DNA from: a virus
Length of the DNA stretch: 31,401 nt
Reading direction: 5' to 3' (one strand)
IMG/VR virus record: IMGVR_UViG_3300046673_000201
Shown: positions 1,707 to 20,315 of the stretch, in pieces
Position numbering within the stretch: position 1 is the first letter of the stretch
Layout of the letters: the number at the start of each line of letters is the position of its first letter
Made by a program: the position numbers and the translations under genes
Notes under the pieces: model-generated
Seen by the model: the letters and a program-made list of their open reading frames with translations, nothing else
What the model was told of the DNA's origin: nothing
Databases searched by the model: none

Positions 1707-1748
1707 AGTTATATATTACAATAAAAAAATGTAATTATTTCTAGATAA

Positions 1749-1788
1749 GCGTGATTATACTTATAATCACGCATAATAATAATCACGC
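1749..1788. promoter_or_regulatory. Operator-like palindrome gcgtgattata-ct-tataatcacgc plus a third aatcacgc half-site; it contains a TATAAT hexamer
   Basis: 24-bp near-perfect palindrome at 1749-1772 with TATAAT at 1762-1767, and a repeated half-site at 1781-1788. It lies just upstream of the 1808 ORF / nuclease / lysis block. Confidence 0.35.
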
Positions 1789-1807
1789 TAAACATTGGGG
1801 AATTAAA

Positions 1808-1978: not shown

Positions 1979-2003
1979 CATCACCGAATTCAGTTAGGTT
2001 AAA

Positions 2004-2360: not shown

Positions 2361-2408
2361 ATTGCTAAGTCTTAATAAAGTGTTAAAATGTAATTTTAGG
2401 AGATATAA

Positions 2409-2927
2409 ATGGCAGACTTTTTACCAGCGGTAACAATAGTTTTAAAACAAGAAGGTGGATGGTGTAATGATGCCGCAGATTCTGGTGGAGAAACAAATCT
2501 AGGTCTTACATGGACGGATCTTAATGCTGCCATCAAAGCGGGGATTGTTTCACGTGGAACAAAGATAAAAGATCTAACCCAATCTCAAGCAACGGATATT
2601 TATAAAGAACTTTACTGGGATGCGCACTTAAATCTAAATAATATAAACAATCAGTCAATTGCTAATAAACTATTTTCAGAAATTGTAAACCTAGGTCCTT
2701 ATCCGGCAGTTCTGATAATCCAAAAAGCAATTAATACCAACAATGGGAATATTCAAGAAGACGGAAAGTTCGGCCCGCACACACTTGACGCTATAAATAA
2801 TGTTGATAGCGATGCTTTATTAACTTCTTATAAGAAAGCATTATGCAGTTACTACCGAAGTATTGTTATAAGAAATCCTAAGGATGAGATCTTCCTAAAA
2901 GGTTGGCTCGCGCGTGCTAATAGTTAA
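2409..2927 (+). CDS. Endolysin, glycoside hydrolase family 108 with a C-terminal PG_binding_3-like region
   Basis: N-terminus FLPAVTIVLKQEGGWCNDAADSGGETNLGLT is the GH108 signature (L..EGGy.nd..D.GG.T..Gi). DGKFGPHTLDAIN is typical of the peptidoglycan-binding part. It is followed by membrane-protein genes. Confidence 0.85.
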   Translation: MADFLPAVTIVLKQEGGWCNDAADSGGETNLGLTWTDLNAAIKAGIVSRGTKIKDLTQSQATDIYKELYWDAHLNLNNINNQSIANKLFSEIVNLGPYPAVLIIQKAINTNNGNIQEDGKFGPHTLDAINNVDSDALLTSYKKALCSYYRSIVIRNPKDEIFLKGWLARANS

Positions 2928-2938
2928 TAGGCGACTAT

Positions 2939-3016
2939 GTGAAATATATACCAGGTGTATTAATTTTAATTCTTTGTGTATTAATGGGATACGCTTTATA
3001 TCAAACAATATTATGA
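2939..3016 (+). CDS. Possible 25-aa hydrophobic peptide (GTG start)
   Basis: (M)KYIPGVLILILCVLMGYALYQTIL. Its TGA overlaps the ATG at 3013 (ATGA). Weak AGG upstream. Not in the ORF track because it is too short. Confidence 0.3.
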   Translation: MKYIPGVLILILCVLMGYALYQTIL

Positions 3017-3324
3017 CAGAGCCAACGATAATAAACGCGAACGCAGATAGCACAACTATCGTGCAGAATATCCAGCAAGGAACTTTACAAGACTCTACTG
3101 GCAATCTATGTATAAAAAAAATATCAGGCATATCGTTTCTAGTTACTGGAGCTATATTAGGATTGATTTTATTCTGGCGTGGTTTGATTGATCCTGAGCA
3201 TAGTTACGAGGCATCAATGTCGGTGATGACTACATTCCTTGTCAGCGGCGGCAGTTTGATAGGATTAAGCTCAATTGATGGGCTTAAATCAATGTTTAGT
3301 AGAGGAAAACAGGGGGCAGTGTAA
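3013..3324 (+). CDS. Putative holin (two predicted TM helices)
   Basis: Directly downstream of the endolysin. ISGISFLVTGAILGLILFW and MSVMTTFLVSGGSLIGLSSI are hydrophobic segments, with a charged C-terminus. The start is uncertain (GTG 2914 or ATG 3013). Confidence 0.5.
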   Translation: MTEPTIINANADSTTIVQNIQQGTLQDSTGNLCIKKISGISFLVTGAILGLILFWRGLIDPEHSYEASMSVMTTFLVSGGSLIGLSSIDGLKSMFSRGKQGAV

Positions 3325-3464
3325 TGATATATATAATTATATGTGTATTATTAACAGTATTCATAGTTGTTATATTTAGTTTGCTACATATAAATAAATG
3401 TCGTGATTATTTTGATAATAAATATCCTATTAAAACCATTCCAAGGCCGGGATCAAAATTTTGA
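3324..3464 (+). CDS. Small single-TM protein (46 aa)
   Basis: ATG overlaps the upstream TAA. MIYIIICVLLTVFIVVIFSLLHINKCRDYFDNKYPIKTIPRPGSKF. Confidence 0.4.
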   Translation: MIYIIICVLLTVFIVVIFSLLHINKCRDYFDNKYPIKTIPRPGSKF

Positions 3465-3553
3465 AAAATTCATTTTTATTATTAGCATTTGCGTTTTTAT
3501 CTTTAACAATTGTTGTGGTATCTAGTTACGTAATATACTTAACATTTATTTAA
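3461..3553 (+). CDS. Possible small TM peptide (30 aa, TTG start)
   Basis: (M)KNSFLLLAFAFLSLTIVVVSSYVIYLTFI. Overlaps the preceding stop. Non-ATG start. Confidence 0.25.
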   Translation: MKNSFLLLAFAFLSLTIVVVSSYVIYLTFI

Positions 3554-3564
3554 AGGAGTAAAAT

Positions 3565-3777
3565 ATGATTATACTTATAATAACAGTATCTGTATTGATA
3601 GTAGCTGGGATATTTTTATATATTCTGATAAAAGATTCAGGTGAGAAAAAAGAACAACAAAAAGAAGTTGAGGCTGCTATAACAGAGGCTAGAAAAATTG
3701 CAGCAGTTGCAGCAGCAAGCGCCACTACTACCGACCAACAGGTGCAAGAAGACATGAAAAAATTCACGAGAGACTAA
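3565..3777 (+). CDS. Putative i-spanin (N-terminal TM anchor plus charged helical periplasmic part)
   Basis: AGGAG at 3554-3558. MIILIITVSVLIVAGIFLYILI followed by a KE-rich segment. It immediately precedes, and overlaps by 1 nt, a lipoprotein gene. Confidence 0.55.
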   Translation: MIILIITVSVLIVAGIFLYILIKDSGEKKEQQKEVEAAITEARKIAAVAAASATTTDQQVQEDMKKFTRD

Positions 3778-3971
3778 TGAGAAAATTAATACTATTGTTA
3801 TCTGCATTACTATTATGCGGATGTGCTGCAGATAAATTATATTTATCTGATATGTGCTTGCTAGCAAAACCAATTTCGATATCGAAGGCTGATAAAATTA
3901 CCCCGGTTACTTTGCGTGAAATATGGGAATTTAACGCCAAATATGAAGTTTTATGCGGTGTTAAGAAGTAG
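3777..3971 (+). CDS. Putative o-spanin (outer-membrane lipoprotein)
   Basis: MRKLILLLSALLLCGC: signal peptide with lipobox L-C-G-C. Small mature protein with extra Cys. Last gene of the lysis block. Confidence 0.65.
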   Translation: MRKLILLLSALLLCGCAADKLYLSDMCLLAKPISISKADKITPVTLREIWEFNAKYEVLCGVKK

Positions 3972-4227
3972 TTTTTTTGTTCCCTCTTCTTCTCGATACA
4001 TCTCCGGTACTTGTGCTCAGCATATCCTCTAGGGTTATTTCTATGTCAAACATTTTAGCGAACTCAACTAAGCGTTGCGTTACTTGATTGCTAGGTCTCG
4101 CTAAATCATTCTCAAATCTACTAATCCTGTTTTGTGATATCTCTAAAATGAGGGCTAGTTCTTGTTGGTTTATTTCTGCCTTCGATCTCAGATCTATTAT
4201 TTTTTGTGCTAAAGTATTTGTTGTCAT
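3961..4227 (-). CDS. XRE-family helix-turn-helix repressor (CI/Cro-like)
   Basis: LAQKIIDLRSKAEINQQELALILEISQNRISRFENDLARPS is a typical HTH_3 motif. It is divergent from the early operon. Confidence 0.8.
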   Translation of the reverse strand: MTTNTLAQKIIDLRSKAEINQQELALILEISQNRISRFENDLARPSNQVTQRLVEFAKMFDIEITLEDMLSTSTGDVSRRRGNKKTTS

Positions 4228-4278
4228 TTATAGAGTATACATACATGTAAAATTATTTCATAATTATTTTATAGTTAC

Positions 4279-4306
4279 TTGACATAATTAAAAAGTATGC
4301 TATATT
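4279..4306 (+). promoter_or_regulatory. Sigma70-type early rightward promoter
   Basis: TTGACA (4279-4284), 16-bp spacer, TATATT (4301-4306). Faces the early operon, opposite the repressor gene. Confidence 0.55.
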
Positions 4307-4354
4307 AAACATTGTTGCAAACAATAAAATAACAAATTGACAGGAGTTTTAACA

Positions 4355-4495
4355 ATGAATAACGATTTTGATTTTATATCTGAAATTAATGCATATAATG
4401 CCACCGTTTTAAAATCTATTTTCCCTCAAATATTTATTGACGAAGAAAATAAAGTAGAATGGTCTAACGATCAATTATCTTCGGAGGTAGAATAA
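4355..4495 (+). CDS. Small acidic hypothetical protein (46 aa)
   Basis: CAGGAG at 4341-4346 then ATG 4355. MNNDFDFISEINAYNATVLKSIFPQIFIDEENKVEWSNDQLSSEVE. Confidence 0.45.
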   Translation: MNNDFDFISEINAYNATVLKSIFPQIFIDEENKVEWSNDQLSSEVE

Positions 4496-4636
4496 ATGAA
4501 TATATTTTATTCTCGCCATAGAGCTACAGATGTACTACCTAATAAAAAAAGAAAAACTACATATAAAATAGTATATTTTATTGCTGTGGTAACTATCGTC
4601 ACAACGATTTATCTTTTGATTAGTGGGGTATTGTAA
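4496..4636 (+). CDS. Small tail-anchored membrane protein (46 aa)
   Basis: GGAGG at 4483-4487. MNIFYSRHRATDVLPNKKRKTTYKIVYFIAVVTIVTTIYLLISGVL. Its stop overlaps the ATG at 4636. Confidence 0.45.
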   Translation: MNIFYSRHRATDVLPNKKRKTTYKIVYFIAVVTIVTTIYLLISGVL

Positions 4637-5547
4637 TGAATAACAAACAGAACCCATTTAAAAAGGCAGAACGAAAGAAAAGTAAATTAAGGCTTTGCCT
4701 AACCGGTGTTTCTGGTTCTGGTAAAACTTATTCAGCTCTTAGACTAGCGAAAGGAATGGGTGGTAAGATTGCTTTTATTGATACGGAACAAGGTAGCGCA
4801 CAACTTTATTCTGATATGGCAGAATTTGATGTGCTCGAATTGTCAGCCCCTTATAGTCCATCTCGTTACATTGATGCTATAAAACAAGCTGAGTTAGCTG
4901 GATATGAAATTCTAATAGTGGATTCTTTGAGCCACGCTTGGGCCGGTGAAGGTGGTGTCTTAGATATAGTAGATAAATTATCTCAGGCATCTAACAGTAA
5001 AAATAGTTTTATGTCATGGAATAAAGGATCTAAAGAGCAAAATATTTTAGTGGACAAAATATTATCCTCTCCTTTGCATATAATATGTTGTTTGCGTTCT
5101 AAAACAGCATATGAATTGGTTGACGCTGGAAACGGTAGGAAATCTCCAAAGAAATTTGGACTTGCTCCCGTACAGCGTGAAAATATGGAGTATGAATTCA
5201 CATCAGTTTTAGATATTTCTCGCGATTCTCATTTAGCGGTAGTATCTAAAAACCGAACATCATTATTTGCTGATGAAACTCCTTTTCTTATAACAGAAGA
5301 GACAGGAAAAGATTTTATATCTTGGCTTGACAAAGGTGTAGAGCCGCCAGCGAAAAGAGATTTCATTACTATTGATTTGCTTGATAAAATAAATGCTTGT
5401 AACTACATCAAGGAATTAGAGTCTATATTTATCGACGCAAGAAAAGATATGACATGCGAAGCTGAGCAACAAGATCTAATAAAAGATTGTGCCAGAAGAA
5501 AGAAAGAATTGCTTGCTTTAGAAGTTGAAAAGGATATAGATTTTTAA
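4636..5547 (+). CDS. AAA_24-family RecA-like ATPase (Sak4-like recombination protein)
   Basis: Walker A LTGVSGSGKTYSA, Walker B ILIVDSLSHAW, then the RSKTAYE...P.QRENMEYEF pattern typical of phage AAA_24/Sak4 proteins. Confidence 0.8.
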   Translation: MNNKQNPFKKAERKKSKLRLCLTGVSGSGKTYSALRLAKGMGGKIAFIDTEQGSAQLYSDMAEFDVLELSAPYSPSRYIDAIKQAELAGYEILIVDSLSHAWAGEGGVLDIVDKLSQASNSKNSFMSWNKGSKEQNILVDKILSSPLHIICCLRSKTAYELVDAGNGRKSPKKFGLAPVQRENMEYEFTSVLDISRDSHLAVVSKNRTSLFADETPFLITEETGKDFISWLDKGVEPPAKRDFITIDLLDKINACNYIKELESIFIDARKDMTCEAEQQDLIKDCARRKKELLALEVEKDIDF

Positions 5548-6295: not shown

Positions 6296-6499
6296 ATGAA
6301 AACATATACAATAGATACAGATTTTGATTCTGATCTCAGAGAATATATAGCTTTTTTTGACGGCTACGACGGTACGGTAGAAGAAGGTGTTGAATCAGAC
6401 CCTATTGGTCATGGCGATACAGAAACAGAGGCCATGTTGGATTTACTAGACCAATCATTTATGAGAGAGTGTTTAAAAAAAGATAAGGTGAAAAAATGA
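6296..6499 (+). CDS. Hypothetical acidic protein (67 aa); its 3' end lies in the duplicated region
   Basis: ORF with C-terminus ...ETEAMLDLLDQSFMRECLKKDKVKK. Confidence 0.45.
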   Translation: MKTYTIDTDFDSDLREYIAFFDGYDGTVEEGVESDPIGHGDTETEAMLDLLDQSFMRECLKKDKVKK

Positions 6500-6830
6500 A
6501 AAAAGAAACTGTAGAAAAAAGTATTGATGACGTAACAAATGATATGCGGCTAAAAACAGCAGAGGTTCGTGATGACATAGCAGAATTGATAACAAAAACA
6601 GAGGCCATGTTGGATTTACTAGACCAATCATTTATGAGAGGCAGAATTGATAACAAAAACAGAGGCCATGTTGGATTTACTAGACCAATCATTTATGAGA
6701 GAGTGTTTAAAAAAAGATAAGGTGAAAAAATGAAAAAAGAAACTGTAGAAAAAAGTATTGATGACGTAACAAATGATATGTGGCTAAAAACAGCAAAGGC
6801 TCGTGATGACATAGCAGAATTGATAACAAA
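6425..6830. repeat. Nested tandem duplication: a 43-bp block X occurs three times (6425-6467, 6598-6640, 6659-6701; a shared upstream base makes the last two copies 44 bp, from 6597 and 6658), a 129-bp block Y occurs twice (6468-6596, 6702-6830, three mismatches), and a 61-bp unit is tandemly doubled (6580-6640, 6641-6701)
   Basis: Direct reading of the sequence. The X copies are identical. The Y copies differ at 6547/6781, 6563/6797 and 6567/6801. Confidence 0.9.
6496..6720 (+). CDS. Chimeric ORF created by the duplication (N-terminus equals the 6730 ORF, middle equals the C-terminus of the 6296 ORF)
   Basis: MKKETVEKSIDDVTNDM(R/W)LKTA... is shared with 6730-6999, and TEAMLDLLDQSFMR is shared with 6296-6499. 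The tail is read out of frame through repeat copies. Confidence 0.35.
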   Translation: MKKETVEKSIDDVTNDMRLKTAEVRDDIAELITKTEAMLDLLDQSFMRGRIDNKNRGHVGFTRPIIYERVFKKR

Positions 6831-6999
6831 GAGTTATTTAACTCCTGTACAGGTATTGTCAGCATTGCTAATGAATGTATCAGCCTTATTAGAATATAAC
6901 GTAAAAGAGGAGTGTCTAGACGATAAGAATGATTATCTTGGTAAGCTTCTTATATTGTCTGGAAAGATCTTAGAGAAATCTGGAATTGTTAGGAAATAG
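6730..6999 (+). CDS. Hypothetical protein (89 aa)
   Basis: GGTGA RBS. ORF followed by an intrinsic terminator. Confidence 0.5.
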   Translation: MKKETVEKSIDDVTNDMWLKTAKARDDIAELITKSYLTPVQVLSALLMNVSALLEYNVKEECLDDKNDYLGKLLILSGKILEKSGIVRK

Positions 7000-7059
7000 T
7001 TTACTTATGTACCGGTATGTGTATATTCGAAGTGTAACTTAAAAATTTGTTCCTTTTAG

Positions 7060-7093
7060 CGGGTATTGTTACGCATAGCAATACCCGTTTTTT
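7060..7093 (+). terminator. Rho-independent terminator ending the early rightward operon
   Basis: Stem cgggtattg (7060-7068) / caatacccg (7079-7087) followed by TTTTTT (7088-7093). Confidence 0.75.
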
Positions 7094-7337
7094 ATCTTTC
7101 TTTAAAGCATTTGCTACAAATCCAATTCCCTTCCATATTTACCGTGCCAGGATTACTACACCTACAACCATCAGGTTTATATACAGTACATCTAGTGAAT
7201 TTAACATAGTTACCCGCTGACGTCTTAACGTTAATGTAATCATCTAAGTTTATCGCAGATTTTGACTCTGGTTTTTTATTGTAGTTACCATATGTCCTAA
7301 CCTCTTCACCGGTTCTGTAGTCTTTATAATTGCTCAT
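7092..7337 (-). CDS. Cys-rich hypothetical protein (81 aa)
   Basis: ORF with C..C....C-type cluster RCTVYKPDGCRCSNPG...WICSKCF. No clear SD. Confidence 0.45.
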   Translation of the reverse strand: MSNYKDYRTGEEVRTYGNYNKKPESKSAINLDDYINVKTSAGNYVKFTRCTVYKPDGCRCSNPGTVNMEGNWICSKCFKER

Positions 7338-7418
7338 ATTAATTTTTAGATAAGTATTTACATGTTTAATATATCTGATACATTCAGCGCACTCATAGAT
7401 TCTCTCTATTTGGACCTG

Positions 7419-7448
7419 AAATACCCGGTGAAAACTGGGTATTTTTTT
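7419..7448. terminator. GC-containing hairpin between two minus-strand genes, with a T-run on the plus strand
   Basis: aaataccc (7419-7426) / gggtattt (7437-7444), with the T-run (7442-7448) beginning inside the 3' arm. On the minus strand the tail is weak (auuuc). Confidence 0.35.
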
Positions 7449-7463
7449 ATCTTATATTGATAT

Positions 7464-8006
7464 TTATTCAGCATATTCCCATATGAAACCGCCAGCTGAT
7501 AGCAATCTACCTTTAGCGCATTTACATATATGACCTCTAAATATTTTAAGAGCACGCTCTGCACCTCTTATAGAGGCATAAGATCTTATATAAACATGAC
7601 CCTTAGTGTACTGTATTATTTTTTTGACGCGTTTATTATCTTTACCTATTCTACTTTTTGACCATATTAAATTAATATAAGAATTATCATAAATATCTTT
7701 ATTTATATGGAAAATGTGTTTTTTATTTCCTGGTTTAGGTAAGTATGTCATTGCGACTAGATTGCATACTTTGTAAGATTTCTTAATATTATTTTTACTT
7801 AAATTAAGGCTTGGACCTTGATTGATAACCATAGATTCCTTTAACCACTGACCGTAATGTCTATGTACACTAAAATTACTACCGCTGATCCATTCCTTTG
7901 GGTAACTCCACACTCTGCCATTTTTAGTAATGGCGTACAATCCCTCATACCCAGGAATATCTTTTATTTCTATACGCTTTGGCTTTACATTGCTTGTAAC
8001 TTTCAT
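7464..8006 (-). CDS. HNH homing endonuclease (NUMOD4 N-terminus, HNH_3 core, IENR1/NUMOD1-like C-terminal DNA-binding motif)
   Basis: [21 protein letters not shown] (NUMOD4), [16 protein letters not shown] (HNH_3-like), [36 protein letters not shown] (IENR1-like). Confidence 0.75.
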
Positions 8007-8221
8007 TTTATTTTATCCAAGTATTTTATTTGACTGTCTTCCTCTTCTTTTTCCTTTTTCTCTTTCTGAATTTTTATATATATCTCTTCTCTGTGTACGC
8101 TTATATCTATTGGAGCGTCTATACCTAGACGCGTTTGTCTACCATTTATTTCTAATATAGATATGCAAATATCATTACCAATTCTGATGCGTTCTCCGAC
8201 TCTTCTTGTAAGAATTAACAT
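8003..8221 (-). CDS. csrA: CsrA/RsmA-family RNA-binding translational regulator
   Basis: [52 protein letters not shown] aligns along its length with enterobacterial CsrA ([10 protein letters not shown]...[13 protein letters not shown]). There is an extra KE-rich tail. GGAGG RBS at 8229-8233 (minus strand). Its stop overlaps the HNH start. Confidence 0.9.
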
Positions 8222-8248
8222 TTAAAACCTCCGTAGGGCGAACCCCTA

Positions 8249-8311
8249 TTATTTTTTAATTAATATAATTACCATAAAACTTACGATAGCGAATATTAAA
8301 AATGATGCCAT
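8249..8311 (-). CDS. Hydrophobic micropeptide 1 (20 aa)
   Basis: MASFLIFAIVSFMVIILIKK. Member of a four-ORF tandem paralogous set upstream of csrA. Weak AAGG SD. Confidence 0.35.
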   Translation of the reverse strand: MASFLIFAIVSFMVIILIKK

Positions 8312-8327
8312 TTTATAGACCTTTATT

Positions 8328-8405
8328 TTATTCTTTATAAACTAATATAGCGGTTAAAATAGTAGTTAAAAGAGCGGCTATAACTAACAATAGAAATACT
8401 ATCAT
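8328..8405 (-). CDS. Hydrophobic micropeptide 2 (25 aa)
   Basis: MIVFLLLVIAALLTTILTAILVYKE. Its ATG overlaps the TGA of peptide 3 (ATGA). GGGAAG SD. Confidence 0.4.
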   Translation of the reverse strand: MIVFLLLVIAALLTTILTAILVYKE

Positions 8406-8473
8406 CGTTCTTCCCTACTAATCAAAAGACCTATTAACATACCACCAAGTACGAATAACAAAAATGTTATCAT
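8402..8473 (-). CDS. Hydrophobic micropeptide 3 (23 aa)
   Basis: MITFLLFVLGGMLIGLLISREER. GAGGG SD. Confidence 0.4.
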   Translation of the reverse strand: MITFLLFVLGGMLIGLLISREER

Positions 8474-8485
8474 TTTATAACCCTC

Positions 8486-8539
8486 TTAGTCTTTGAAAAG
8501 TAAAATACAAGCTATTAAAAATAATAATGACACTACCAT
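8486..8539 (-). CDS. Hydrophobic micropeptide 4 (17 aa)
   Basis: MVVSLLFLIACILLFKD. AGGAG SD 7 nt upstream. Confidence 0.4.
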   Translation of the reverse strand: MVVSLLFLIACILLFKD

Positions 8540-8570
8540 TTTATTCTCCTATCGATTTGTTATTAATTTA

Positions 8571-8599
8571 TTATAACTACTTATAGTAAGTAGCTATAA
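8571..8599. promoter_or_regulatory. 29-bp near-perfect palindrome (possible operator) upstream of the micropeptide-csrA operon
   Basis: ttataa-ctactta-tag-taagtag-ctataa. One mismatch, 3-nt centre. Confidence 0.35.
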
Positions 8600-8646
8600 T
8601 TGAATATAGCAGATAATTTATGAAAGTGTTATTTATTTTAAATTTG

Positions 8647-8757
8647 TTTACAAATATAAAAATTATTGTATTATATATCTATCTCTGTCCAAAAGATGAG
8701 ATCAAAAAGTAAAAGACAAGATTTGCCCGAATATTTAATTATATCCGGGCTTTTTTT
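8647..8757 (+). ncRNA. Candidate small RNA unit: promoter, roughly 75-nt transcript, intrinsic terminator
   Basis: TTTACA (8647-8652), TG-extended ATTATA (8667-8675), then hairpin gcccgaatat/atatccgggc (8725-8750) followed by T7 (8751-8757). No SD-led ORF inside. Confidence 0.35.
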
Positions 8758-8775
8758 GGCCTATCAAAAATATAA

Positions 8776-8803
8776 TTGACTAAATTTTAAATAATTATAC
8801 AAT
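8776..8803 (+). promoter_or_regulatory. Sigma70-type promoter facing the G-run element
   Basis: TTGACT (8776-8781), 16-bp spacer, TACAAT (8798-8803). Confidence 0.45.
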
Positions 8804-8808
8804 ACATG

Positions 8809-8937
8809 TTCTTTCTTTTTATTTTTTGTTTTTTTTGGACTTTCCTGAATTAACAGGGCAACTTCTCATAGGGGGGTTGGGGGGGATTTGGTAGTTTTTC
8901 TTCTTTTTTCTTTTTCCTTTCTGTTGTGACTTTCTTA
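8809..8937. other. Non-coding element: two long polypyrimidine tracts flanking a G-rich core with G6-TT-G7
   Basis: T/C tracts at 8809-8836 and 8895-8937. Core ggactttcctgaattaacagggcaacttctcataggggggttgggggggatttgg, with the G runs at 8871-8876 and 8879-8885. Compositionally aberrant in an AT-rich genome. Confidence 0.5.
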
Positions 8938-9147
8938 TAGATATTATTTAAATCATAAGAAATAAAAAATATAGATAAATTAAATTCCCTGAAGTTAGAT
9001 TTTTATAGATACTCACAAATTCTATGGATAAGTCTGTTGATATCTTTGACCGGATCTTATGTGATCTGTTGTTTATTTGCCTCTCCCTTAAATTGCGCAT
9101 AATTTAATCATATTCTCTACTTCATACACATAAGCACAAACTATAGC

Positions 9148-9175
9148 TTGATACTGTGCTTAACAGGTTTATAAT
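9148..9175 (+). promoter_or_regulatory. Strong sigma70-type promoter of the GG-leader peptide gene
   Basis: TTGATA (9148-9153), 16-bp spacer, TATAAT (9170-9175), 32 nt before the ATG at 9207. Confidence 0.55.
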
Positions 9176-9206
9176 ATAATTTCTATTTCTAAATTAGAGC
9201 AATGAA

Positions 9207-9548
9207 ATGAAAACATTGAGCAAGAAAGAGATTGAATGCGTAAACGGTGGTGATTTAAATTGTCCAAAGACAGCTCTGAGTACAGCAAGTGCAATTTGTG
9301 TTGGCATAGGATCAGCATTGCAGGCATGGGGACAATCAATTCATGTTGCTGCCCCTAATCTTGGAGATGCAACCCAGACAGCCAAGCAAAGGGTAATAGG
9401 TATGACTATTAGTATAGGTGGTTTAGTATTAAATTGTTTTAGTTTTGCTTTAGCTGCATTATCATCAGCAGAACAGAGTTGTGATTTTACTACCAATACT
9501 ACTGTAACAAACTCAACTATACCCACCAATTCTACAACCACTCCATGA
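9207..9548 (+). CDS. Double-glycine-leader (bacteriocin/microcin-type) secreted peptide precursor, 113 aa
   Basis: MKTLSKKEIECVNGG-DLN... fits the class II bacteriocin leader consensus. The predicted mature part has two Gly/Ala-rich hydrophobic helices, 4 Cys and a Thr/Asn-rich tail with NTT, NST, NST. Confidence 0.6.
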   Translation: MKTLSKKEIECVNGGDLNCPKTALSTASAICVGIGSALQAWGQSIHVAAPNLGDATQTAKQRVIGMTISIGGLVLNCFSFALAALSSAEQSCDFTTNTTVTNSTIPTNSTTTP

Positions 9549-12900: not shown

Positions 12901-15072
12901 ATGAAAACCGATAAAGATGATATTCTTAGAATAACTAAAAACGTAGAATTATCGATGGAAACTAATTGGAATAATATCGAAAGATATCGCACCTCCAGGG
13001 AGTTCGTATTCAAATCTACCTTATCTACCAAGGCTAAAAATTCATTATCTGCGCTTAATATTCCTATCCTAGAATTTAATCTATCTGAGGCATTTTTATC
13101 CAGACTTCGCGGTGAGTTTGCTGAACAACAACCTGGCATCATGGTAAGTATTCAAGACGGCGTTAATGTCACCCCAGAGATAGAACAGCAACGCGAGCTT
13201 ATTGAAGGTTATGTTAGGTTTGTAATGGATGAAGCGTCAAGAAATGGCACCCAAACATCGTTATGGGACGAAATCACAAGTGGCGGCTTCAGCGCAGCCA
13301 AGGTTTACGCTAAGTACGATGAAGGTAAAACATTTAAACAAAAAATAGTTTGGGCGAAGTCGTACGATCCAACTTTAACAGGATTTGACCCATTATCTAG
13401 AGAACCTAGCAAATCTGATAGTGAGTACTGTTTCGAGTTATTCCCATACAGCAAAGAAAAATTTGAGAAAATGTTTGATCATAAAATTAAAGACGTTGTG
13501 TTTAGTAATCAAGAAAAATTTAGTTGGTTTTTCAAAATTCATGATATGGAGGTTGTGGTAGTGGCAGATTATTATGAAAAACAACAAAAAAAGATCAAGA
13601 TTGTGGAACTATCTACGGGTGAAGTGATCGAGAAGAAACAATATGCAACTTTAATAGAAGAGAAAATTCTTAACTCGCTAGAAGCTGCGCCCGTGATTAT
13701 TAATGAAAGAGAAGTGGATACCACTAAGATAATTAGATATCAATTGATCGGTAATACGATTCTTAGTAAAGAAGAGATAGATACCTCTGATTCACTTCCT
13801 TTGGTTTGGTTTGATGGCAGTTCGGTTGTTCTAAGTGATGGCGGATCTAAATCCGAGCAGATGACACGCCCATATCTAATGAACTGTATAGGTGTGCAGA
13901 AATTATTTAATAATCTAGGAGCGGCTCTTGCAGATGAATGTCAGAATTTAAGCAGGCATAAGATACTTATAGCATCTGAGTCAATTGATCCTAATTATGT
14001 ACATCATATTACCGAACCTCAGCAGTATGATACGTTAGTATATAGAGCTTTTAACAATAATAACCCAGACAAACCTAATCCACCCCCACAACAGATGGCT
14101 AGAAACGCTTTTCCTCCTGAGATGTTGGCATTATGGTCTAGCCTTCCTCAGGTGTTCCAAAACATATTGGGTAGTTATGATAGCCAACTTGGTATCAATG
14201 GTGGCAACAATCTATCCGGTGCGGCTATAGTTCAAGGGGCTATTCACAGTAGTGCAACTGCAAAACCATTTATAAACCGATATATTCTAAGTCTTAACCA
14301 AGTAGCAAAGATAATATTAGGTCTTATTCCTAAAGTTTATGTTGCTCCTATGTCAATTCCCATGATCGACAAAGAAGGTAATCAACAATATCATCCGGTT
14401 AATGGTGAAGGTCAGCCTTCTTTAAAATATGAAGACAACACTTTCAACATTAAGGTAGAGGCCGGTACATCTTTTATAGCGCAAAAAACTCAAGCACTTC
14501 AGCAGATAATACAGTTGAGTCAGGCTTCTCAAGTATTCAGCCAGTTCATAAATACCAAAGGATTGAAAGTATTGATCGATAATATCGATATGAAGGGCCA
14601 GGATCAGCTTAAACTTTTGGCTGCGCAATTTATGCAAGAACTTGAGCAGCAGAAACAACAGGCCATGCAAGCACAACAAAACCCTCAGCCAAATCCAATT
14701 ATGATGCGAGAAAAAAACCATCAGGATGAAATACAAATGAAGGGGCAACAAAATCAAATTGAAGCTCAAAAATACGAGATGCAGGCTAAACTTGAAGAGG
14801 CAAAGTTAAATCTAGCACAGGAGGAATTAGCCCTAAAGAGAGTTGAGTTAATAGCCAAGACTCAGACAGAAGAAGGTTACATGGCTCTTCAGCAAGAAAA
14901 GAATGACGCAGATATGGCGCGAGTTATAATTGATAAAGCACATGCTGCGACTGACATGAACCATCGGCATGCAAAAGACCACGCAGAGCATGGATTAAAA
15001 CAACATGAGTTGATGCATAAGATAAGTACAGGACATCGCCCAACTGGCGAGCCACATTTTACTAATGAATAA
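12901..15072 (+). CDS. Portal protein, P22-like, with a long C-terminal coiled-coil barrel region
   Basis: 723 aa, directly after terL. FDPLSREPSKSDSEYCFELFPYSKEKF resembles the P22 gp1 segment [23 protein letters not shown]. The last ~150 aa are Q/E/K/A-rich heptad-like sequence. Confidence 0.85.
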   Translation: MKTDKDDILRITKNVELSMETNWNNIERYRTSREFVFKSTLSTKAKNSLSALNIPILEFNLSEAFLSRLRGEFAEQQPGIMVSIQDGVNVTPEIEQQRELIEGYVRFVMDEASRNGTQTSLWDEITSGGFSAAKVYAKYDEGKTFKQKIVWAKSYDPTLTGFDPLSREPSKSDSEYCFELFPYSKEKFEKMFDHKIKDVVFSNQEKFSWFFKIHDMEVVVVADYYEKQQKKIKIVELSTGEVIEKKQYATLIEEKILNSLEAAPVIINEREVDTTKIIRYQLIGNTILSKEEIDTSDSLPLVWFDGSSVVLSDGGSKSEQMTRPYLMNCIGVQKLFNNLGAALADECQNLSRHKILIASESIDPNYVHHITEPQQYDTLVYRAFNNNNPDKPNPPPQQMARNAFPPEMLALWSSLPQVFQNILGSYDSQLGINGGNNLSGAAIVQGAIHSSATAKPFINRYILSLNQVAKIILGLIPKVYVAPMSIPMIDKEGNQQYHPVNGEGQPSLKYEDNTFNIKVEAGTSFIAQKTQALQQIIQLSQASQVFSQFINTKGLKVLIDNIDMKGQDQLKLLAAQFMQELEQQKQQAMQAQQNPQPNPIMMREKNHQDEIQMKGQQNQIEAQKYEMQAKLEEAKLNLAQEELALKRVELIAKTQTEEGYMALQQEKNDADMARVIIDKAHAATDMNHRHAKDHAEHGLKQHELMHKISTGHRPTGEPHFTNE

Positions 15073-15081
15073 TCGGAGTAT

Positions 15082-15282
15082 ATGAAAATGGTAGCAAAAA
15101 AGAAAAATTTTATACAAGCAATGCATATGAAAAAAGGCGCTCTTAGAGAAGAATTAAAAGTCCCTAAGGGTAAAAAAATCCCTGAAAAGAAACTTGAAAA
15201 AGCCGAGCATAGCAAGAACCCTGTAGAGAGAAAACGGGCAACTTTAGCAGTCACGCTCAGCAAATTAAGAAAAAAGAAATAA
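15082..15282 (+). CDS. Small lysine-rich basic protein (66 aa)
   Basis: GGAG RBS. MKMVAKKKNFIQAMHMKKGALREELKVPKGKKIPEKKLEKAEHSKNPVERKRATLAVTLSKLRKKK. Confidence 0.55.
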   Translation: MKMVAKKKNFIQAMHMKKGALREELKVPKGKKIPEKKLEKAEHSKNPVERKRATLAVTLSKLRKKK

Positions 15283-15295
15283 ATAATTTATTTAT

Positions 15296-15335
15296 AATTC
15301 GGTCTACATTGTGGGCCGAATTAGTTTTTATTTTT
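15296..15335. terminator. Intrinsic terminator between convergent genes
   Basis: aattcggtc (15296-15304) / ggccgaatt (15314-15322, one G-U pair), followed by T-rich tttttatttttg. Confidence 0.6.
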
Positions 15336-15342
15336 GTTTGGT

Positions 15343-15564
15343 TTATTCCTCTCTTATCTTTTGTCTATCCTTAAACTCTCTTATCTCCATCAATAATTCT
15401 GTAGCAGCTTCTATACAATAAGATATTTCTGCCTCTTGTTCTTTGGTTAACGCCGCATCTTTTAAAAACTTCTCTTTTCCTTCTATAAATATAGTGCACT
15501 GTTTCTCTATGCTACCTAAGAAATCAAAGAAATATTGTGTCATGTTAGGAGTCGATTGTTTCAT
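15343..15564 (-). CDS. Hypothetical protein (73 aa), last gene of the minus-strand rep unit
   Basis: ORF downstream of rep on the same strand. No motif recognised. Confidence 0.45.
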   Translation of the reverse strand: MKQSTPNMTQYFFDFLGSIEKQCTIFIEGKEKFLKDAALTKEQEAEISYCIEAATELLMEIREFKDRQKIREE

Positions 15565-15670
15565 TTGTTAGTTCATTAAGCGGTATTTGCACCCATCTGG
15601 TTTTGCGGGATTATTATTAGATTATAAAAAGGAAGTTTGTGTATGGGTGCTTTTTGTCTCTTCTTTATTT

Positions 15671-16492
15671 TTATTTTTTTACCCTACCAAAGAATTTTTT
15701 AGCTTCATCGCATAATGGAGCTTTTATTCTTTTGATTTCGTCTTTATATCTTATTGATTTACTATTTATTCTCTTCCCTTTAAATACTTTAAACTTCAGT
15801 GATACAACTTCCCTACCGGCTTTGTTCTCTTCATAATCAAATTGTATATCAGTTTTTTCATTTATTTCTTTTTTTGCTATATTTAATACTTCTTGTTTTA
15901 TATTTCCGTATAACCTATAGGTCTTCTTATCTTTTATTCCCATCATGTCTTTAAATCTATCGAGTGTAAAAGTTTTACCATATTTTTTATTACAAGCTAA
16001 AATCATATAAAGCCTTATTGCATACATTGATTCTAGTTTAAAAATATATGATATTTCCAGTTGGGTAAAATTAGATTTTAATGAAAAAATATGTGGTATT
16101 ATTTCAGGATGAAGCTTGAACTTAATCATGTGATCAATTTCACTGTAAGATATACTATAAAACCAATGTACCATAATCCATTCTTCTTTCTGTCTTATAT
16201 GTATTACTCTTTCTGATAGACTCAGGCATACCTTGTATATTTCTTTTGGCATATCTTTGATATCTAAATTCATATCTTTGATATATTCTTTACCTGAAAT
16301 AGATATTTCTTTTCCAAGATAAATACCGTCTTCAATATACTCACCGCCTTTAAACCAATCATCTTCGTGTGTTTGGCTTAATATCCATAACAACAATCTT
16401 TGCTCTTGAACGCTATATGGTCTTGCCTGTTTTGCTTCTGCTACTAAATTTGACACTACCGCCACCTTTATTACTTTTTTATCATTTTGCAT
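15671..16492 (-). CDS. Rep_3-family (RepB/pi/RepA-like) iteron-binding replication initiator
   Basis: NLVAEAKQARPYSVQEQRLLLWILSQ, FTQLEISYIFKLESMYAIRLYMIL and TLDRFKDMMGIKDKKTYRLYGNIKQEVLNIAKKEINEKTDIQFDYEENKAGREVVSLKFKV match the winged-helix Rep_3 pattern. Iterons lie immediately upstream. Confidence 0.85.
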   Translation of the reverse strand: MQNDKKVIKVAVVSNLVAEAKQARPYSVQEQRLLLWILSQTHEDDWFKGGEYIEDGIYLGKEISISGKEYIKDMNLDIKDMPKEIYKVCLSLSERVIHIRQKEEWIMVHWFYSISYSEIDHMIKFKLHPEIIPHIFSLKSNFTQLEISYIFKLESMYAIRLYMILACNKKYGKTFTLDRFKDMMGIKDKKTYRLYGNIKQEVLNIAKKEINEKTDIQFDYEENKAGREVVSLKFKVFKGKRINSKSIRYKDEIKRIKAPLCDEAKKFFGRVKK

Positions 16493-16566
16493 AAAGATTC
16501 CCTTCAGGTTTATAGTTTTGTTATTCTATATTATTTGCTCCAATCTGCAAGTCTATATTAGAGTAT

Positions 16567-16596
16567 ATTATATGCTGATGTTGTCAAGCATATAAT
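16567..16596. promoter_or_regulatory. 10-bp inverted repeat in the rep promoter region (candidate autoregulatory operator)
   Basis: attatatgct (16567-16576) and agcatataat (16587-16596), separated by 10 bp, between the rep start and the iterons. Confidence 0.45.
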
Positions 16597-16597
16597 A

Positions 16598-16692
16598 AGC
16601 TGGGGCAAACCCAATAGTAGTTGGGGCAAACCCAATAGTTGGAGTAAAAAAGCTGGGGCAAACCCAATAGTAGTTGGGGCAAACCCAATAGT
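16598..16692. repeat. Replication-origin iterons: four 21-bp direct repeats ag(c/t)tggggcaaacccaatagt in two abutting pairs
   Basis: Copies at 16598-16618, 16619-16639, 16651-16671 and 16672-16692. Each pair is followed by tggag. An A/T-rich stretch follows at about 16797-16850, and an 8-bp inverted repeat aggtacca/tggtacct lies at 16696-16703 / 16742-16749. Confidence 0.85.
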
Positions 16693-17025
16693 TGGAGGTA
16701 CCACCCTTCGCTACAGACCGCATAAAACCTATATATTTTGATGGTACCTTAAAAGCCCAAAGCTTTCAAAGTAAAGATATAAAGTTTTCAAAGAGAAAAA
16801 TAGGAATTTTTTTATCAAATTTAAAAGCAAAAAAGCAAAAAAATGAGATTCTCTGATTTATGATTTACAAAACAAACACCATCCAAATAAATACCGGACC
16901 AATCATATTAAAAACGTCTTTACTTGACCGAGGGGTGGTAAGTATACTGCCGGATAGTTTTACGAGGGTTAAATATTAATCCGTCCGTATTTTTAACGGA
17001 CCAAAATCTATTGCAGAACATAATC

Positions 17026-17298
17026 ATGACAGCAATTGACGAAATTCAAAGTTTGAAAGACAAAAATGGACAGATATTTACTACTGAAAAATTATCTAGG
17101 ACTGATGCTATTAAATATTTCTGTGTTCAATGCTTAGGTTTTGAGGGACATCCTGATGATTGCGAGATAGAGACCTGTCCATTGTTTCATTTTCGAGGTA
17201 AGGTTATGTTAGGAAGATTGAGTGATGAGCAAAGACAAAAACTAAGTGACAATGCTAAAAGGCATGGATTTAAGAAACTAGATAAAACAAAAGCTTGA
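17026..17298 (+). CDS. Cys-rich (zinc-binding-like) small protein, 90 aa
   Basis: ATG at 17026. CVQCLGFEGHPDDCEIETCPLFHFRG. Basic C-terminus. Confidence 0.5.
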   Translation: MTAIDEIQSLKDKNGQIFTTEKLSRTDAIKYFCVQCLGFEGHPDDCEIETCPLFHFRGKVMLGRLSDEQRQKLSDNAKRHGFKKLDKTKA

Positions 17299-17322
17299 CA
17301 CGATCCAAACTAAGCTTAAAAT
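17295..17322 (+). promoter_or_regulatory. Sigma70-type promoter for the scaffold/coat operon
   Basis: TTGACA (17295-17300), 16-bp spacer, TAAAAT (17317-17322). Confidence 0.45.
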
Positions 17323-17338
17323 AATCTTATTATATTTA

Positions 17339-17431
17339 CCTACGCCCGTACTGCGGTTAAAGTACACGCCTACGCATGTGTTGCGGTAAAAGCACAGATT
17401 GGCAAAAATTACGCTGACGCGGTTAAAAATC
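17339..17431. repeat. Three imperfect direct repeats (tacgc-N4-6-(t)gcggt(t)aaa) in the leader of the scaffold gene
   Basis: Copies at 17339-17367, 17368-17397 and 17409-17431. Each can form a short cgc/gcg hairpin. Confidence 0.6.
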
Positions 17432-17444
17432 AAAAGGGTTTCAT

Positions 17445-18197
17445 ATGACTGACGAAAATATTTCTATCGAGAATACCGCTGCACCACAGGCAGAACCTGC
17501 AGTACAGCAAAGCAATGTTGTAGATACGGTTGTAAAATCTGAACCAACAACTTTCAATCAGGACCAAGTTAATATTATTTCTGCTGACACAAAAAGGCGG
17601 ACTGAGGAAAGGGTTAGGGCAGAGGTTAAGGCAGAATACGAGTCAAGATATGGTGCTAAACCGAATTTAAGCACCCAAAACGAGGCGATCGGTACAGGGG
17701 CTGTACAGTCATCACCCTCCACCAATCAAATCGAAAATAAGGGCTTTAACGAGGAACAGCTCTATCAGAATTTTAGACAGAGGCAAGAGCAAGAGCAGCA
17801 ACATTTTCAACAACAGCAGATGACGAATGATTTTTTGATGAAGATCCAGGCTAGTGGTAAAGCTGATAAGATCGAATCATCGGGAATAGGAAACTTACCC
17901 ACAAATCATCCACTGATACCAATGTTGAATTCTCTTGATAATATTGCTGATGTCTTAGATGATTTTTCTGATAACCCTGTCAAGGTAGCTAATTTGCTGG
18001 CTGTCACGTATCTAAATCCATTAAACGGATTTAAAGAATTGCAAGGTATTTCTAACTCGATTAAAAGAAACAAAGACGCTCTTGCTAAAGAAAAAGCACC
18101 AGTGCCGTCAAGTCAACTGAAACCATCTAGTTTAGGTTTGGGTGGTGGTGAGTTGTCGATGTCGTCTAAGCGTAGTAACAAAGCGTTTAGATTTTGA
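17445..18197 (+). CDS. Scaffolding protein
   Basis: 250 aa, Q/E-rich helical, immediately upstream of the coat gene. Confidence 0.65.
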   Translation: MTDENISIENTAAPQAEPAVQQSNVVDTVVKSEPTTFNQDQVNIISADTKRRTEERVRAEVKAEYESRYGAKPNLSTQNEAIGTGAVQSSPSTNQIENKGFNEEQLYQNFRQRQEQEQQHFQQQQMTNDFLMKIQASGKADKIESSGIGNLPTNHPLIPMLNSLDNIADVLDDFSDNPVKVANLLAVTYLNPLNGFKELQGISNSIKRNKDALAKEKAPVPSSQLKPSSLGLGGGELSMSSKRSNKAFRF

Positions 18198-18263: not shown

Positions 18264-19619
18264 ATGTCTAACCCTACGATTAATTTTTTGCAGCAAGTAA
18301 GGACGTATAACGCTGATGCACAATTACCTGGATTTTTGAACCAAAACTGTTTTATATCAGACATTTGCAATCATGAATTTGTTGATTTCGAAAAAAAGAC
18401 ACCTGCAAATTTAGGTGATACCATTGCAATCGCTTTGCCAATGGCTAGTGTTGCTAACGCTGGGCTCATAGTATCGGCTCAACCAGTTCGTCAGAACATT
18501 GCTCACCTTTCTGTTATCTCTGCCGCAAACGTCGCTATTGCAGTTACAAACCAACAAAGAATTTTCAATACGAATCATGATGGTTTCTGGAAAATGATCG
18601 GTAAGGGTATGATTTCAGAATTAGGAAGCAAGGTTGAGCAATCTATTGCTATGCATGTTAACTCTTCTGCGATCGATATGCGCCTAGATTCCCCAACTTA
18701 TGGTCAAGAACAATATCTTTCCGGACCAACTCGTTTCGTTGATTGCACCGCTACAGGCCTTTTAAGCTACCAAGCTTTAGATCAGAGCATGTCAGATTTT
18801 ATTTCTATGGGCGCACCTAACGATGATCATTGTGTCGTATTACCTACTAACTATTATTCCCCAATTATTGGATCAGGCTTAAACCAATTCGTACCGATCC
18901 GTAATGATGAGGCCGCGCAAAGTTGGTTAGTCGGTGAATTTGGTTCACCTCGTACTAAATACTACAGATCAAACTACTTGCCTGTTCAAATCGCTGGTGC
19001 TTTCGGTGTTGCTGGCACGGTTTGTACAGTTGTAAGCACTAACGATCCAACTGGTACTAACGTAACACAGTTAACATTGTCTAGTGGTGGTGGTAGTCAT
19101 TCTATCGCTGTTGCTGCTGGTGATATGGGTTGGTTCCTACCTGCTTCCAACATTAATGCATTAACTTTTTATGGTCACATGCAGACTAATCAGCCAGTTC
19201 AATTCCGTGTAATTGCTGATGCTTCTTCTAATGCTGGTGCTGTAGTAGTAAATATTATTACTAATACTCATACAGAAGGCCAAGGCTTATGTAGTGTAGT
19301 CGGTAATGCATTGCAGAATATTAGCGGAACAATTCAAGCTGGTATGACTGTACAATTCGTTGGATCGCATCGTTGTGGACTTAGGATCTGTAGCAAAGCA
19401 TTTTACATAGCCGTACCGAGATTAGATAATGAACACCCATTTACCACATCAGTAGATACCGACGATGAAACTAAAGTATCGTTACGTATGTATTATGGTG
19501 CTGTATTCGGACAAAATAAAAAGTGGTTGGTGAATGACGTCATATGGGGCGGATTGTTATTATCAAGATATAGCCAACGTTTCTGTTTGCCCTTAACTGG
19601 TAACGTTGCATCGGCATAG
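18264..19619 (+). CDS. Major capsid (coat) protein, P22-coat-like by size and position
   Basis: 451 aa, GAGGA RBS, follows the scaffold gene. No enzyme motifs. Confidence 0.75.
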   Translation: MSNPTINFLQQVRTYNADAQLPGFLNQNCFISDICNHEFVDFEKKTPANLGDTIAIALPMASVANAGLIVSAQPVRQNIAHLSVISAANVAIAVTNQQRIFNTNHDGFWKMIGKGMISELGSKVEQSIAMHVNSSAIDMRLDSPTYGQEQYLSGPTRFVDCTATGLLSYQALDQSMSDFISMGAPNDDHCVVLPTNYYSPIIGSGLNQFVPIRNDEAAQSWLVGEFGSPRTKYYRSNYLPVQIAGAFGVAGTVCTVVSTNDPTGTNVTQLTLSSGGGSHSIAVAAGDMGWFLPASNINALTFYGHMQTNQPVQFRVIADASSNAGAVVVNIITNTHTEGQGLCSVVGNALQNISGTIQAGMTVQFVGSHRCGLRICSKAFYIAVPRLDNEHPFTTSVDTDDETKVSLRMYYGAVFGQNKKWLVNDVIWGGLLLSRYSQRFCLPLTGNVASA

Positions 19620-19631: not shown

Positions 19632-20315
19632 TTGACTCATAAATTGCCCCATGGTATTTTGCAATTTATGATAAAAAATATAAATAGATTAGATTTTGAA
19701 GGCAAGATTCACAGACTCCCTAAAGATGGTTGTTGGGTTTGGACTGGTGCCAAGACAGAAAAGGGTTACGGTACATTTTATACAGATAATAATCGGTATA
19801 GAGCTCATAGAATATCTTATGAACTTTATGTTGGTGAGATTCCAGATGGAATGTTTGTATGTCATAAATGTGATAATCCTTGGTGTGTAAATCCTGCACA
19901 TCTCTGGATTGGTACCAATGCTGATAATCAGCAAGATAAGCATAATAAAGGTAGAGGCAAGGGCTGGATTGTTAACGATGAGGCTAAGTCTAGAATTAGT
20001 GAGTTACATAAAGGTAACACATATAATTTAGGACGAACTCTTAGCGATGATCACAAAGCCAAACTTAGCATTGCTCACACAGGTAAAACGCTTAGCGAAG
20101 AGCATAAGGCTAAGATTACTGCTAGTCTTGTTGGTCATAAAGTTAGTTCTGAGACAAAAGAAAAACTTAGGGCTGGATCTACTGGTAATAAGAATGCTTT
20201 AGGTAAAGTACGTAGTCCTGAATCTATCGAAAGATATAGGAAGGCAGCTATTAAAAGAGAGGCTGTTAAGAAAGCTAACAAATCTTTAAATGATATTAAC
20301 AATTTAATAACTTGA
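19632..20315 (+). CDS. HNH homing endonuclease (HNH_3 core plus NUMOD3 repeats)
   Basis: CWVWTGAKTEKGYGTF...AHRISYEL...VCHKCDNPWCVNPAHLWIGTNADNQQD, then repeated (H/S)KG/TGK..SEEHKAK motifs. The start is ambiguous (TTG 19632 or ATG 19668). Confidence 0.8.
   Translation: MTHKLPHGILQFMIKNINRLDFEGKIHRLPKDGCWVWTGAKTEKGYGTFYTDNNRYRAHRISYELYVGEIPDGMFVCHKCDNPWCVNPAHLWIGTNADNQQDKHNKGRGKGWIVNDEAKSRISELHKGNTYNLGRTLSDDHKAKLSIAHTGKTLSEEHKAKITASLVGHKVSSETKEKLRAGSTGNKNALGKVRSPESIERYRKAAIKREAVKKANKSLNDINNLIT

Follow-up and report, generated by a model that had tools for sequence, protein, structure and literature searches.

The window analysed here is the whole stretch of 31,401 nucleotides (nt) deposited as IMG/VR virus record IMGVR_UViG_3300046673_000201, the genome of an uncultured tailed phage of ~31 kb in which a complete replication unit of plasmid style separates the portal gene from the scaffold gene. 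The termini of the window share an exact 127-nt overlap, giving a circle of 31274 bp and bearing out the description of the genome as closed in an earlier note on this DNA. The portal gene (12901..15072, plus strand; Pfam P22_portal, E = 2.9e-66) is followed by a conserved open reading frame (ORF) for a basic protein of 66 amino acids (aa; 15082..15282, plus strand), which is the last gene of the terminase-portal operon and lies directly before the inserted cargo. Then come an intrinsic-terminator hairpin (15295..15323), a minus-strand ORF of 73 aa (15343..15564), the initiator gene rep (15671..16492, minus strand), four 21-bp iterons (16598..16692), an A+T-rich stretch (16760..16860) and a plus-strand gene for a Cys-rich protein (17026-17298). 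A conserved late promoter (17295..17322, plus strand) leads into the scaffold gene (17445..18197, plus strand), which was assigned from position and size only, with the coat gene (18264-19619) 3' of it.

The product of rep is a protein of 273 aa with two winged-helix (WH) domains, WH1 and WH2, and is predicted to be an iteron-binding initiator of the Rep_3 family (PF01051/PF21205 in Pfam). Its N-terminal WH1 domain matched Pfam Rep3_N with an E-value of 3.3e-24 (86 bits; cut-off 22.4), and its C-terminal WH2 domain matched Rep3_C with an E-value of 4.2e-19 (69 bits; cut-off 21.1). The protein also matched phrog_4402, annotated as "replication initiation protein" (E = 1e-36), and a sequence search of the PDB returned RepE of mini-F at 1e-8 to 1e-10. 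An AlphaFold model built from six sequences had a predicted local distance difference test (pLDDT) score of 68, with 70-90 in the core; Foldseek matched this model to 1rep, 2z9o, and 2nra (E ~1e-9 to 1e-10, template modelling score normalised to the target 0.67-0.76), and the predicted structure superposes on RepE54, R6K pi, and the WH1 domain of pPS10 RepA (1hkq). The earlier note had named the Rep_3 family and proposed profile search and structure prediction as checks, and the Pfam profiles, the PHROG match and the RepE-like predicted fold all agree with it. The AKKEINEKTD motif, located in the conserved WH2 domain, is invariant in Rep and its homologues. The G+C content of rep is 28.2%; the genome as a whole has 35.9%, and the head genes on either side have 41%. 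The 73-aa ORF 3' of rep, which the earlier note had placed in the same minus-strand unit, is present there and was called as a gene by the Joint Genome Institute (JGI), but its coding status is uncertain: it matched no family in Pfam or PHROGs, found only itself among 5.8 billion protein clusters, and had no homologue in 1.84 billion representatives.

The iterons (AG[C/T]TGGGGCAAACCCAATAGT) are exact copies that form two abutting pairs, at 16598-16618 and 16619-16639 and at 16651-16671 and 16672-16692, as the earlier note had read them. Their starts at 0, 21, 53, and 74 nt correspond to ~2, 5, and 7 helical turns, the pairs are 53 nt apart, and the array ends 105 nt upstream of the rep ATG. 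They are unique in the genome, in which no further iteron-like site was found at up to three mismatches, nor was any found in 100 shuffles. Tandem Repeats Finder reported the array as a 53-nt unit present 1.9 times at 100%, and neither a second iteron-like array nor sites for handcuffing or incA-like control were detected elsewhere in the genome. An assembly artefact was considered as the source of the repeats and rejected, as they are identical in independent JGI assemblies; the short-k Logan contigs merely break inside them.

Between the iterons and rep, a putative rep promoter on the minus strand (16557..16586) can be read as TTGACA (16586-16581), an 18-nt spacer and TCTAAT (16562-16557); a consensus scanner did not report it because of the C at position 2 of the -10 hexamer. 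The -35 hexamer is enclosed by an inverted repeat with a 10-nt spacer (16566-16576 and 16587-16597), whose presence had been noted earlier, although its arms are 11 bp and perfect rather than 10 bp. Inverted repeats of this kind occur at 4 loci in the genome as against ~0.3 per shuffled genome, and by analogy with known iteron plasmids this one is a putative operator at which Rep dimers might repress their own gene. The A+T-rich stretch lies on the side of the iterons away from rep. Judged by base composition only (78-82% A+T, versus 64% for the genome), it is a candidate DNA-unwinding element, and it contains two 13-mers of the form AAAG(C/T)TTTCAAAG, at 16759 and 16781, 22 nt apart. Scans of the window with Rfam and for tRNA genes returned nothing.

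Related phages were gathered through the portal and coat proteins. The nearest are L005, from IMG/VR, and L007, from a JGI metagenome, with which the window phage shares 62-63% identity in the portal, 50-51% in the scaffold and 80-81% in the coat protein; about ten further relatives show 30-40% identity. The 66-aa ORF is 71% identical in L007, where it also stands immediately 3' of the portal gene, and is present in L016, L018, L021, and L024. DNA homology to L007 is lost just past the stop codon of this ORF (~15283) and regained at the late promoter (17295), which delimits the cargo as 15283-17294, between terminator and promoter, that is, between two operons. The block is therefore foreign and cassette-like, as the earlier note had proposed, with edges given by the loss and return of homology to the closest relative. 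At its left edge, the terminator hairpin (13-bp stem with 5 G-C pairs and a T-run) sits between the convergent portal and rep operons and may act in both directions; 5 terminator-like sites were observed in the region, compared with 1.3 expected. Both this terminator and the A+T-rich stretch had been recognised earlier, and correctly so. At the right edge, the late promoter (TTGACA-16-TAAAAT, 11 of 12 consensus matches) restarts the scaffold-coat operon and is conserved in L007 and partly in L005. Between this promoter and the scaffold start codon, a direct repeat of ~30 nt (CCTACGC...TGCGGT(T)AAAAG(C/T)ACA, 1.9 copies) lies at 17339-17396; one copy is kept in L007 and L005, and a late regulator may bind there.

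The distance from the portal stop (15072) to the scaffold start (17445) is 2372 bp, in agreement with the ~2.3 kb given in the earlier note. The note had treated this gap as an anomaly on the ground that the portal is normally followed directly by the scaffold; this holds for P22 itself, but not for the clade of the window phage, since all 11 relatives with both genes have a portal-scaffold distance of 1.0-4.3 kb. The window has the P22_portal match and keeps the portal-scaffold-coat order of a P22-like head module, yet the junction is interrupted in all relatives, and its contents differ from one to another. L007 has a minus-strand operon with a ParE/ParD-like toxin-antitoxin pair (13236-13731), and L005 a minus-strand operon for a 383-aa protein with four helix-turn-helix (HTH) domains of the HTH_3 family (6543-7694), so that a minus-strand cargo operon is common to these two phages and the window. 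Elsewhere the cargo is an HNH endonuclease (L016 and L024) or consists of uncharacterized ORFs. The comparison of the portal/scaffold junction among relatives that the earlier note had suggested gave no Rep in any of the 11 with both genes, and other cargo in its place. Judging from these alignments, we regard the junction as a clade-wide cargo hot spot between two operons. In the distant relative L009 (1-8081), the portal gene is on the strand opposite to TerL, scaffold and coat, and is thus inverted within the head module.

Cultured "P22-like" phages showed only ~22% identity in the portal, the coat protein had no match among cultured phages, and the portals of the relatives had no match in 72,556 PLSDB plasmids; the clade is therefore without a cultured relative or host assignment. 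The host is probably a low-GC gammaproteobacterium. A distant relative, L022 (portal 38% identical, 43-kb contig), has a lambda-type tyrosine integrase (Arm-DNA-bind_1 and Phage_integrase) adjoining the host obg GTPase gene (830-4034) and is for this reason taken as an integrated prophage.

The closest full-length relatives of Rep are only 39% identical and are located on small plasmid-like contigs. L001 is a plasmid-like contig of 5.5 kb (1-5473) with PemK/MazE and a second Rep_3 gene, and L037 a contig of 1.7 kb with a Rep homologue. In both, a DnaA box is followed by a T-rich stretch, then by four to five 21-bp iterons that form abutting pairs, an inverted repeat around TTGACA and finally rep, and the T-rich stretch occupies a position that matches that of the A+T-rich stretch in the window. 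The two Rep_3 genes of L001 are different, and each has its own 21-bp iteron array (2176-2281 and 4573-4655); L001 may be a two-replicon cointegrate, and a terminal overlap of this contig was not found. A single-protein query with Rep found none in IMG/VR, while a search with the Rep alignment found one distant viral contig, L041, which encodes a Rep of 33% identity with four 21-22-bp iterons upstream. Read in the sense of rep, the iterons of the window (ACTATTGGG), L001 (ACTATACCG), L037 (ACTATAGCA), and L041 (ACTATTACT) all contain ACTAT, while the remainder of the repeat differs. This common core fits recognition by the conserved WH2 domain and is indirect evidence that the 21-bp repeats are Rep binding sites. 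A blastn search of 15000-17500 against 50,697 phage records gave no match. The matches of Rep in public records (4241 plasmid versus 21 phage), the low G+C content of rep, and the plasmid-like relatives together indicate that the replicon was captured from a plasmid.

All ORFs of the window were checked by Pfam and/or PHROGs, or through the Pfam annotations precomputed by JGI. No integrase, polymerase, primase, helicase, or other initiator was found in any of them, as the earlier note had held for integrase, DNA polymerase, primase and helicase. The genes for virion formation, packaging, and lysis make up a full set, with TerS, TerL, portal, coat homologues, head-closure, ejection and tail proteins, and a GH108 endolysin. 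The early region consists of an XRE regulator, an AAA_24 ATPase (phrog_1366, with a weak Sak4-like match), and small uncharacterized ORFs only. The XRE gene, which the earlier note had called a repressor, was found at 3961-4227 on the minus strand, divergent from the early operon, and encodes 88 aa with an HTH domain only. A VRR-NUC/resolvase-like nuclease is encoded directly upstream of the lysis genes.

The relatives are differently equipped. Lambda-O-like initiators are encoded in the early regions of L007 (348 aa), L003 (304 aa), and L012 (343 aa), and L003 additionally encodes a DnaB helicase; L016 has a 626-aa Toprim-AAA_25 primase-helicase, with ORFs of similar size at the matching position in L021 and L034. 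The O-like gene of L007 is flanked by homologues of the 163-aa and 81-aa genes of the window, and the slot between these two genes in the window holds only three small ORFs, partly duplicated. These ORFs (6296-6999) contain duplicated segments, with a perfect 61-nt tandem duplication at 6580-6701. The segment is unstable between samples: L027 (SRR23247701) has no 6597-6648. In the relative L007, a PLD nuclease and the O-like initiator are encoded there.

As the relatives have early-region initiators, DnaB, or primase-helicases and the window phage has none, the cassette is most likely its only initiator, which amounts to a replicon swap. We consider it probable that a minimal but complete theta replicon from a plasmid makes up 15283-16900, was caught in the hot spot and now serves as the only initiator and origin of this phage in place of the O-like or primase-helicase modules. 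The suggestion of the earlier note that the element may replicate from this origin with the host replisome is likewise supported by the absence of other replication genes from the window. By analogy with RepE of F, pi of R6K, and RepA of pPS10, Rep monomers would bind the four iterons and promote melting of the adjacent A+T-rich stretch, and the host DnaB/DnaG/Pol III replisome would be recruited there, while rep would be repressed by Rep dimers seated on the inverted repeat at the -35 hexamer. The theta products might then be converted into concatemers for headful packaging by the AAA_24 (Sak4-like) ATPase and the VRR-NUC resolvase-like nuclease. The same genome (at least 99.7% identical) was found on 13 contigs from at least six samples, with the cassette identical throughout, and the cassette is therefore a stable part of the genome.

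Several observations weigh against this replicon-swap reading. The canonical theta layout of iteron plasmids that the earlier note had recognised is there as far as the Rep_3 gene, iterons, and A+T-rich stretch are concerned, but not in its DnaA box: no match to TTATCCACA within one mismatch was found in 15000-17500, whereas both plasmid homologues, L001 and L037, have a perfect one. The arms of the inverted repeat resemble the iterons weakly (ATTAT versus ACTAT, ~4 of 5 bases), unlike those of L001 and L037, which are clearly iteron-derived. The GC-skew analysis that had been proposed for mapping the origin was run and was uninformative, as the skew follows gene orientation and shows no sign of an origin. 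Handcuffing renders iteron replicons self-limiting, and such a replicon would be an odd choice for a lytic burst. It is also possible that the small early ORFs are unrecognised initiators.

What the replicon does for the lifestyle of the phage can be read in more than one way. It has a promoter of its own and is insulated from the phage operons, so that silence of the late genes need not prevent expression of rep; this would permit, without proving, plasmid-like carriage. A true phage-plasmid, kept as an extrachromosomal circle by the replicon, with XRE silencing the lytic genes and a sufficiently high copy number replacing partition genes, is a reading that we entertain tentatively. It would account for a rep gene that appears transcriptionally autonomous and autoregulated, outside the control of the phage operons, and it agrees with the XRE gene divergent from the early operon, with the lack of an integrase, in contrast to the distant relative L022, and with the ParDE toxin-antitoxin pair of the closest relative at the same hot spot. 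KS14, a phage of 32 kb with a Rep_3-type initiator that was isolated as a plasmid prophage, is a precedent (PMC3091744). The earlier note had looked to a lack of host junction reads as a sign of an episome, and at the level of assembly none of the 13 contigs exceeds ~31.8 kb or has host flanks; genome-length contigs of this kind are, however, expected equally of a virulent phage. Likewise, a scan of GTDB genomes found only two contigs of metagenome-assembled genomes, of phage length or shorter, and is silent on integration. Maintenance functions speak less for carriage: no ParA/ParB, toxin-antitoxin, or resolvase match was found in any ORF, in line with the earlier remark on missing par genes and in contrast to KS14, which has ParA, and a dif/Xer-like site was not found in the genome. 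The portals of the relatives are absent from PLSDB, and the XRE protein, of 88 aa, has an HTH domain only.

The missing maintenance functions would be no surprise if the Rep_3/iteron unit did the job of lambda O and its origin in productive infection, in a phage that is virulent or never a plasmid, which we regard as possible with some reservation. Lambda O, too, has four repeats as its binding sites, with an AT-rich region beside them, and the cassette would stand in functionally for the O-like initiators of the relatives. Such a lytic origin is harder to reconcile with a rep gene that appears independent of the early operon: it lies between late operons on the other strand, under a seemingly autoregulated promoter of its own, a placement more in keeping with low-level constitutive expression than with an early burst. 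Control of the handcuffing type, moreover, limits copy number. A cassette without any role in replication, either the remnant of a plasmid-phage cointegrate or a device of incompatibility or exclusion against resident plasmids, seems improbable to us. Phage replication would then start by recombination with the AAA_24 ATPase and host functions. The low G+C content of the cassette, the ORFan status of its 73-aa and Cys-rich neighbours, and the accessory cargo found elsewhere at the hot spot (toxin-antitoxin pairs, HNH endonucleases, HTH regulators) would suit a passenger, but the phage would be left without an initiator, while each of the examined early regions (L007, L003, L012, and L016) encodes one, and the replicon elements are all intact and 100% conserved across samples. 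Going beyond the replicon swap itself, a small podovirus-like lineage with ancestral early O-type initiators, and an integrase in at least one branch, might have turned into a partition-less phage-plasmid in one step, by capture of a ~1.6-kb replicon in a hot spot of the structural operons; we think this scenario rather unlikely as a whole.

The Cys-rich gene, which the earlier note had counted in the same block, is indeed present, but its membership in the replicon was considered and rejected. It belongs to a separate moron-like unit (16915..17298, plus strand) with a promoter-like TTTACT-18-TATACT (16919-16948), a leader hairpin, and the ORF for 90 aa with a CxxC-N9-CxxxxC pattern. The hairpin, GTCCGT-N7-ACGGAC, lies at 16981-17003, between promoter and start codon. 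The sole homologue of the protein among 5.8 billion protein clusters is P0008 (69% identity), whose locus keeps the -10 region of the promoter (TAAGTATACT) and the leader hairpin GTCCGT-N7-ACGGAC, adjoins a different gene, and has no adjoining rep. Thus, as far as can be judged from the two loci, the Cys-rich gene is an independent moron and a chance neighbour of the replicon. A counterpart hairpin in L036 (~176-218) reads ACGGACG-N11-CGTCCGT with a T-run, and the conserved leader hairpin may be an attenuator or a protein-binding site. The gene that follows at the P0008 locus is a homologue of the 113-aa gene of the window (9207-9548, plus strand), the product of which resembles double-glycine leaders at its N-terminus (MKTLSKKEIECVNGG) and is hydrophobic and Gly/Ala-rich in the remainder. 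This protein is conserved in relatives at varied positions and orientations (L007, 5301-5606, minus strand; L036, 640-972, minus strand) and may be bacteriocin-like or a membrane protein.

Some further features of the genome lie away from the cassette. Next to a CsrA homologue (8003-8221, minus strand; Pfam CsrA, E = 1.7e-21), and on its strand, come four tandem hydrophobic ORFs that encode only 17-25 aa (8249-8311, 8328-8405, 8402-8473, and 8486-8539), and this combination of a phage CsrA with a string of membrane-peptide-like ORFs (8003-8539) is unusual. After the string, ~0.7 kb at 8540-9200 is very AT-rich and without long ORFs, and a NUMOD4-type endonuclease-like ORF (7464-8006, minus strand) adjoins CsrA on its other side. 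The coat gene is separated from the head gene after it by an HNH endonuclease gene (19632-20315, plus strand; phrog_1872, 1e-33), which L007 and L006 share and L005 lacks, a distribution that looks like a homing-endonuclease polymorphism.

Rep_3 initiators are already established in phages and phage-plasmids, the latter making up ~5-7% of phages and of plasmids (PMC10879196), and the principle is not new. New here are the uncultured phage lineage, the siting of a replicon within a hot spot among head genes, and comparative data which indicate that an O-type module was displaced. The genome offers a clean comparative case in which the minimal replicon of a plasmid, at another locus, non-orthologously replaces a phage replication module, and it defines a portal-scaffold cargo hot spot for an uncultured phage clade. 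The ~1.6-kb fragment is also a compact candidate replicon or vector for an uncultured host. If plasmid carriage is true, the phage documents how few genes turn a phage into a phage-plasmid; if the one-step conversion is true, it is a natural and datable example of the passage from phage to phage-plasmid, with a plasmid-type ParDE addiction module in the hot spot of a sister phage.

Among known systems, the unit is closest in layout to Rep_3 plasmids such as mini-F (RepE/ori2), pPS10 (RepA/oriV), and R6K (pi/gamma-ori), with which it shares a two-winged-helix initiator, four 21-bp direct repeats that lie ~100 bp before rep, a rep promoter overlapped by an inverted repeat, and an AT-rich stretch beyond the iterons. 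It differs from them in its location inside a phage genome, in the lack of a DnaA box, in inverted-repeat arms that are hardly iteron-like, and in a Rep whose identity to known proteins does not exceed 39%. In the Rep_3/OrfX plasmids of Acinetobacter, four 22-bp iterons precede repA by 56 bp (PMC13141974), and these backbones, like the window unit, have a small ORF downstream of rep; the 73-aa ORF is not OrfX, because it has no homologues. For KS14, a P2-like phage of Burkholderia, carriage as a plasmid has been demonstrated (PMC3091744); it resembles the window phage in its length of ~32 kb and in a Rep_3-type initiator adjoining the portal gene. It is, however, a myovirus of unrelated lineage with ParA and a serine recombinase, its Rep shows only 23.5% identity over 63% of the query, and its rep stands at the early/late border, whereas that of the window stands inside the head-gene series. 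Other phages and phage-plasmids with Rep_3 include D6 of E. coli, phiSemix9P1 and HGP05 of C. difficile, and FLC10 of Burkholderia. The likeness to the lambda O/ori-lambda modules, as in L007, L003, and L012, would be one of function: an initiator binding four repeats beside an AT-rich region, use of the host replisome, and the same functional slot. Unlike lambda, in which the repeats lie inside the O gene and O belongs to the early operon, the window has a Rep of an unrelated protein family, in an autonomous unit on the opposite strand within the morphogenesis region. Finally, the locus resembles the moron and cargo hot spots of phage structural operons, in that a variable segment reaching from terminator to promoter holds a different self-contained cargo in each relative, but in the window the cargo is no accessory gene; it is a core function, that of replication.

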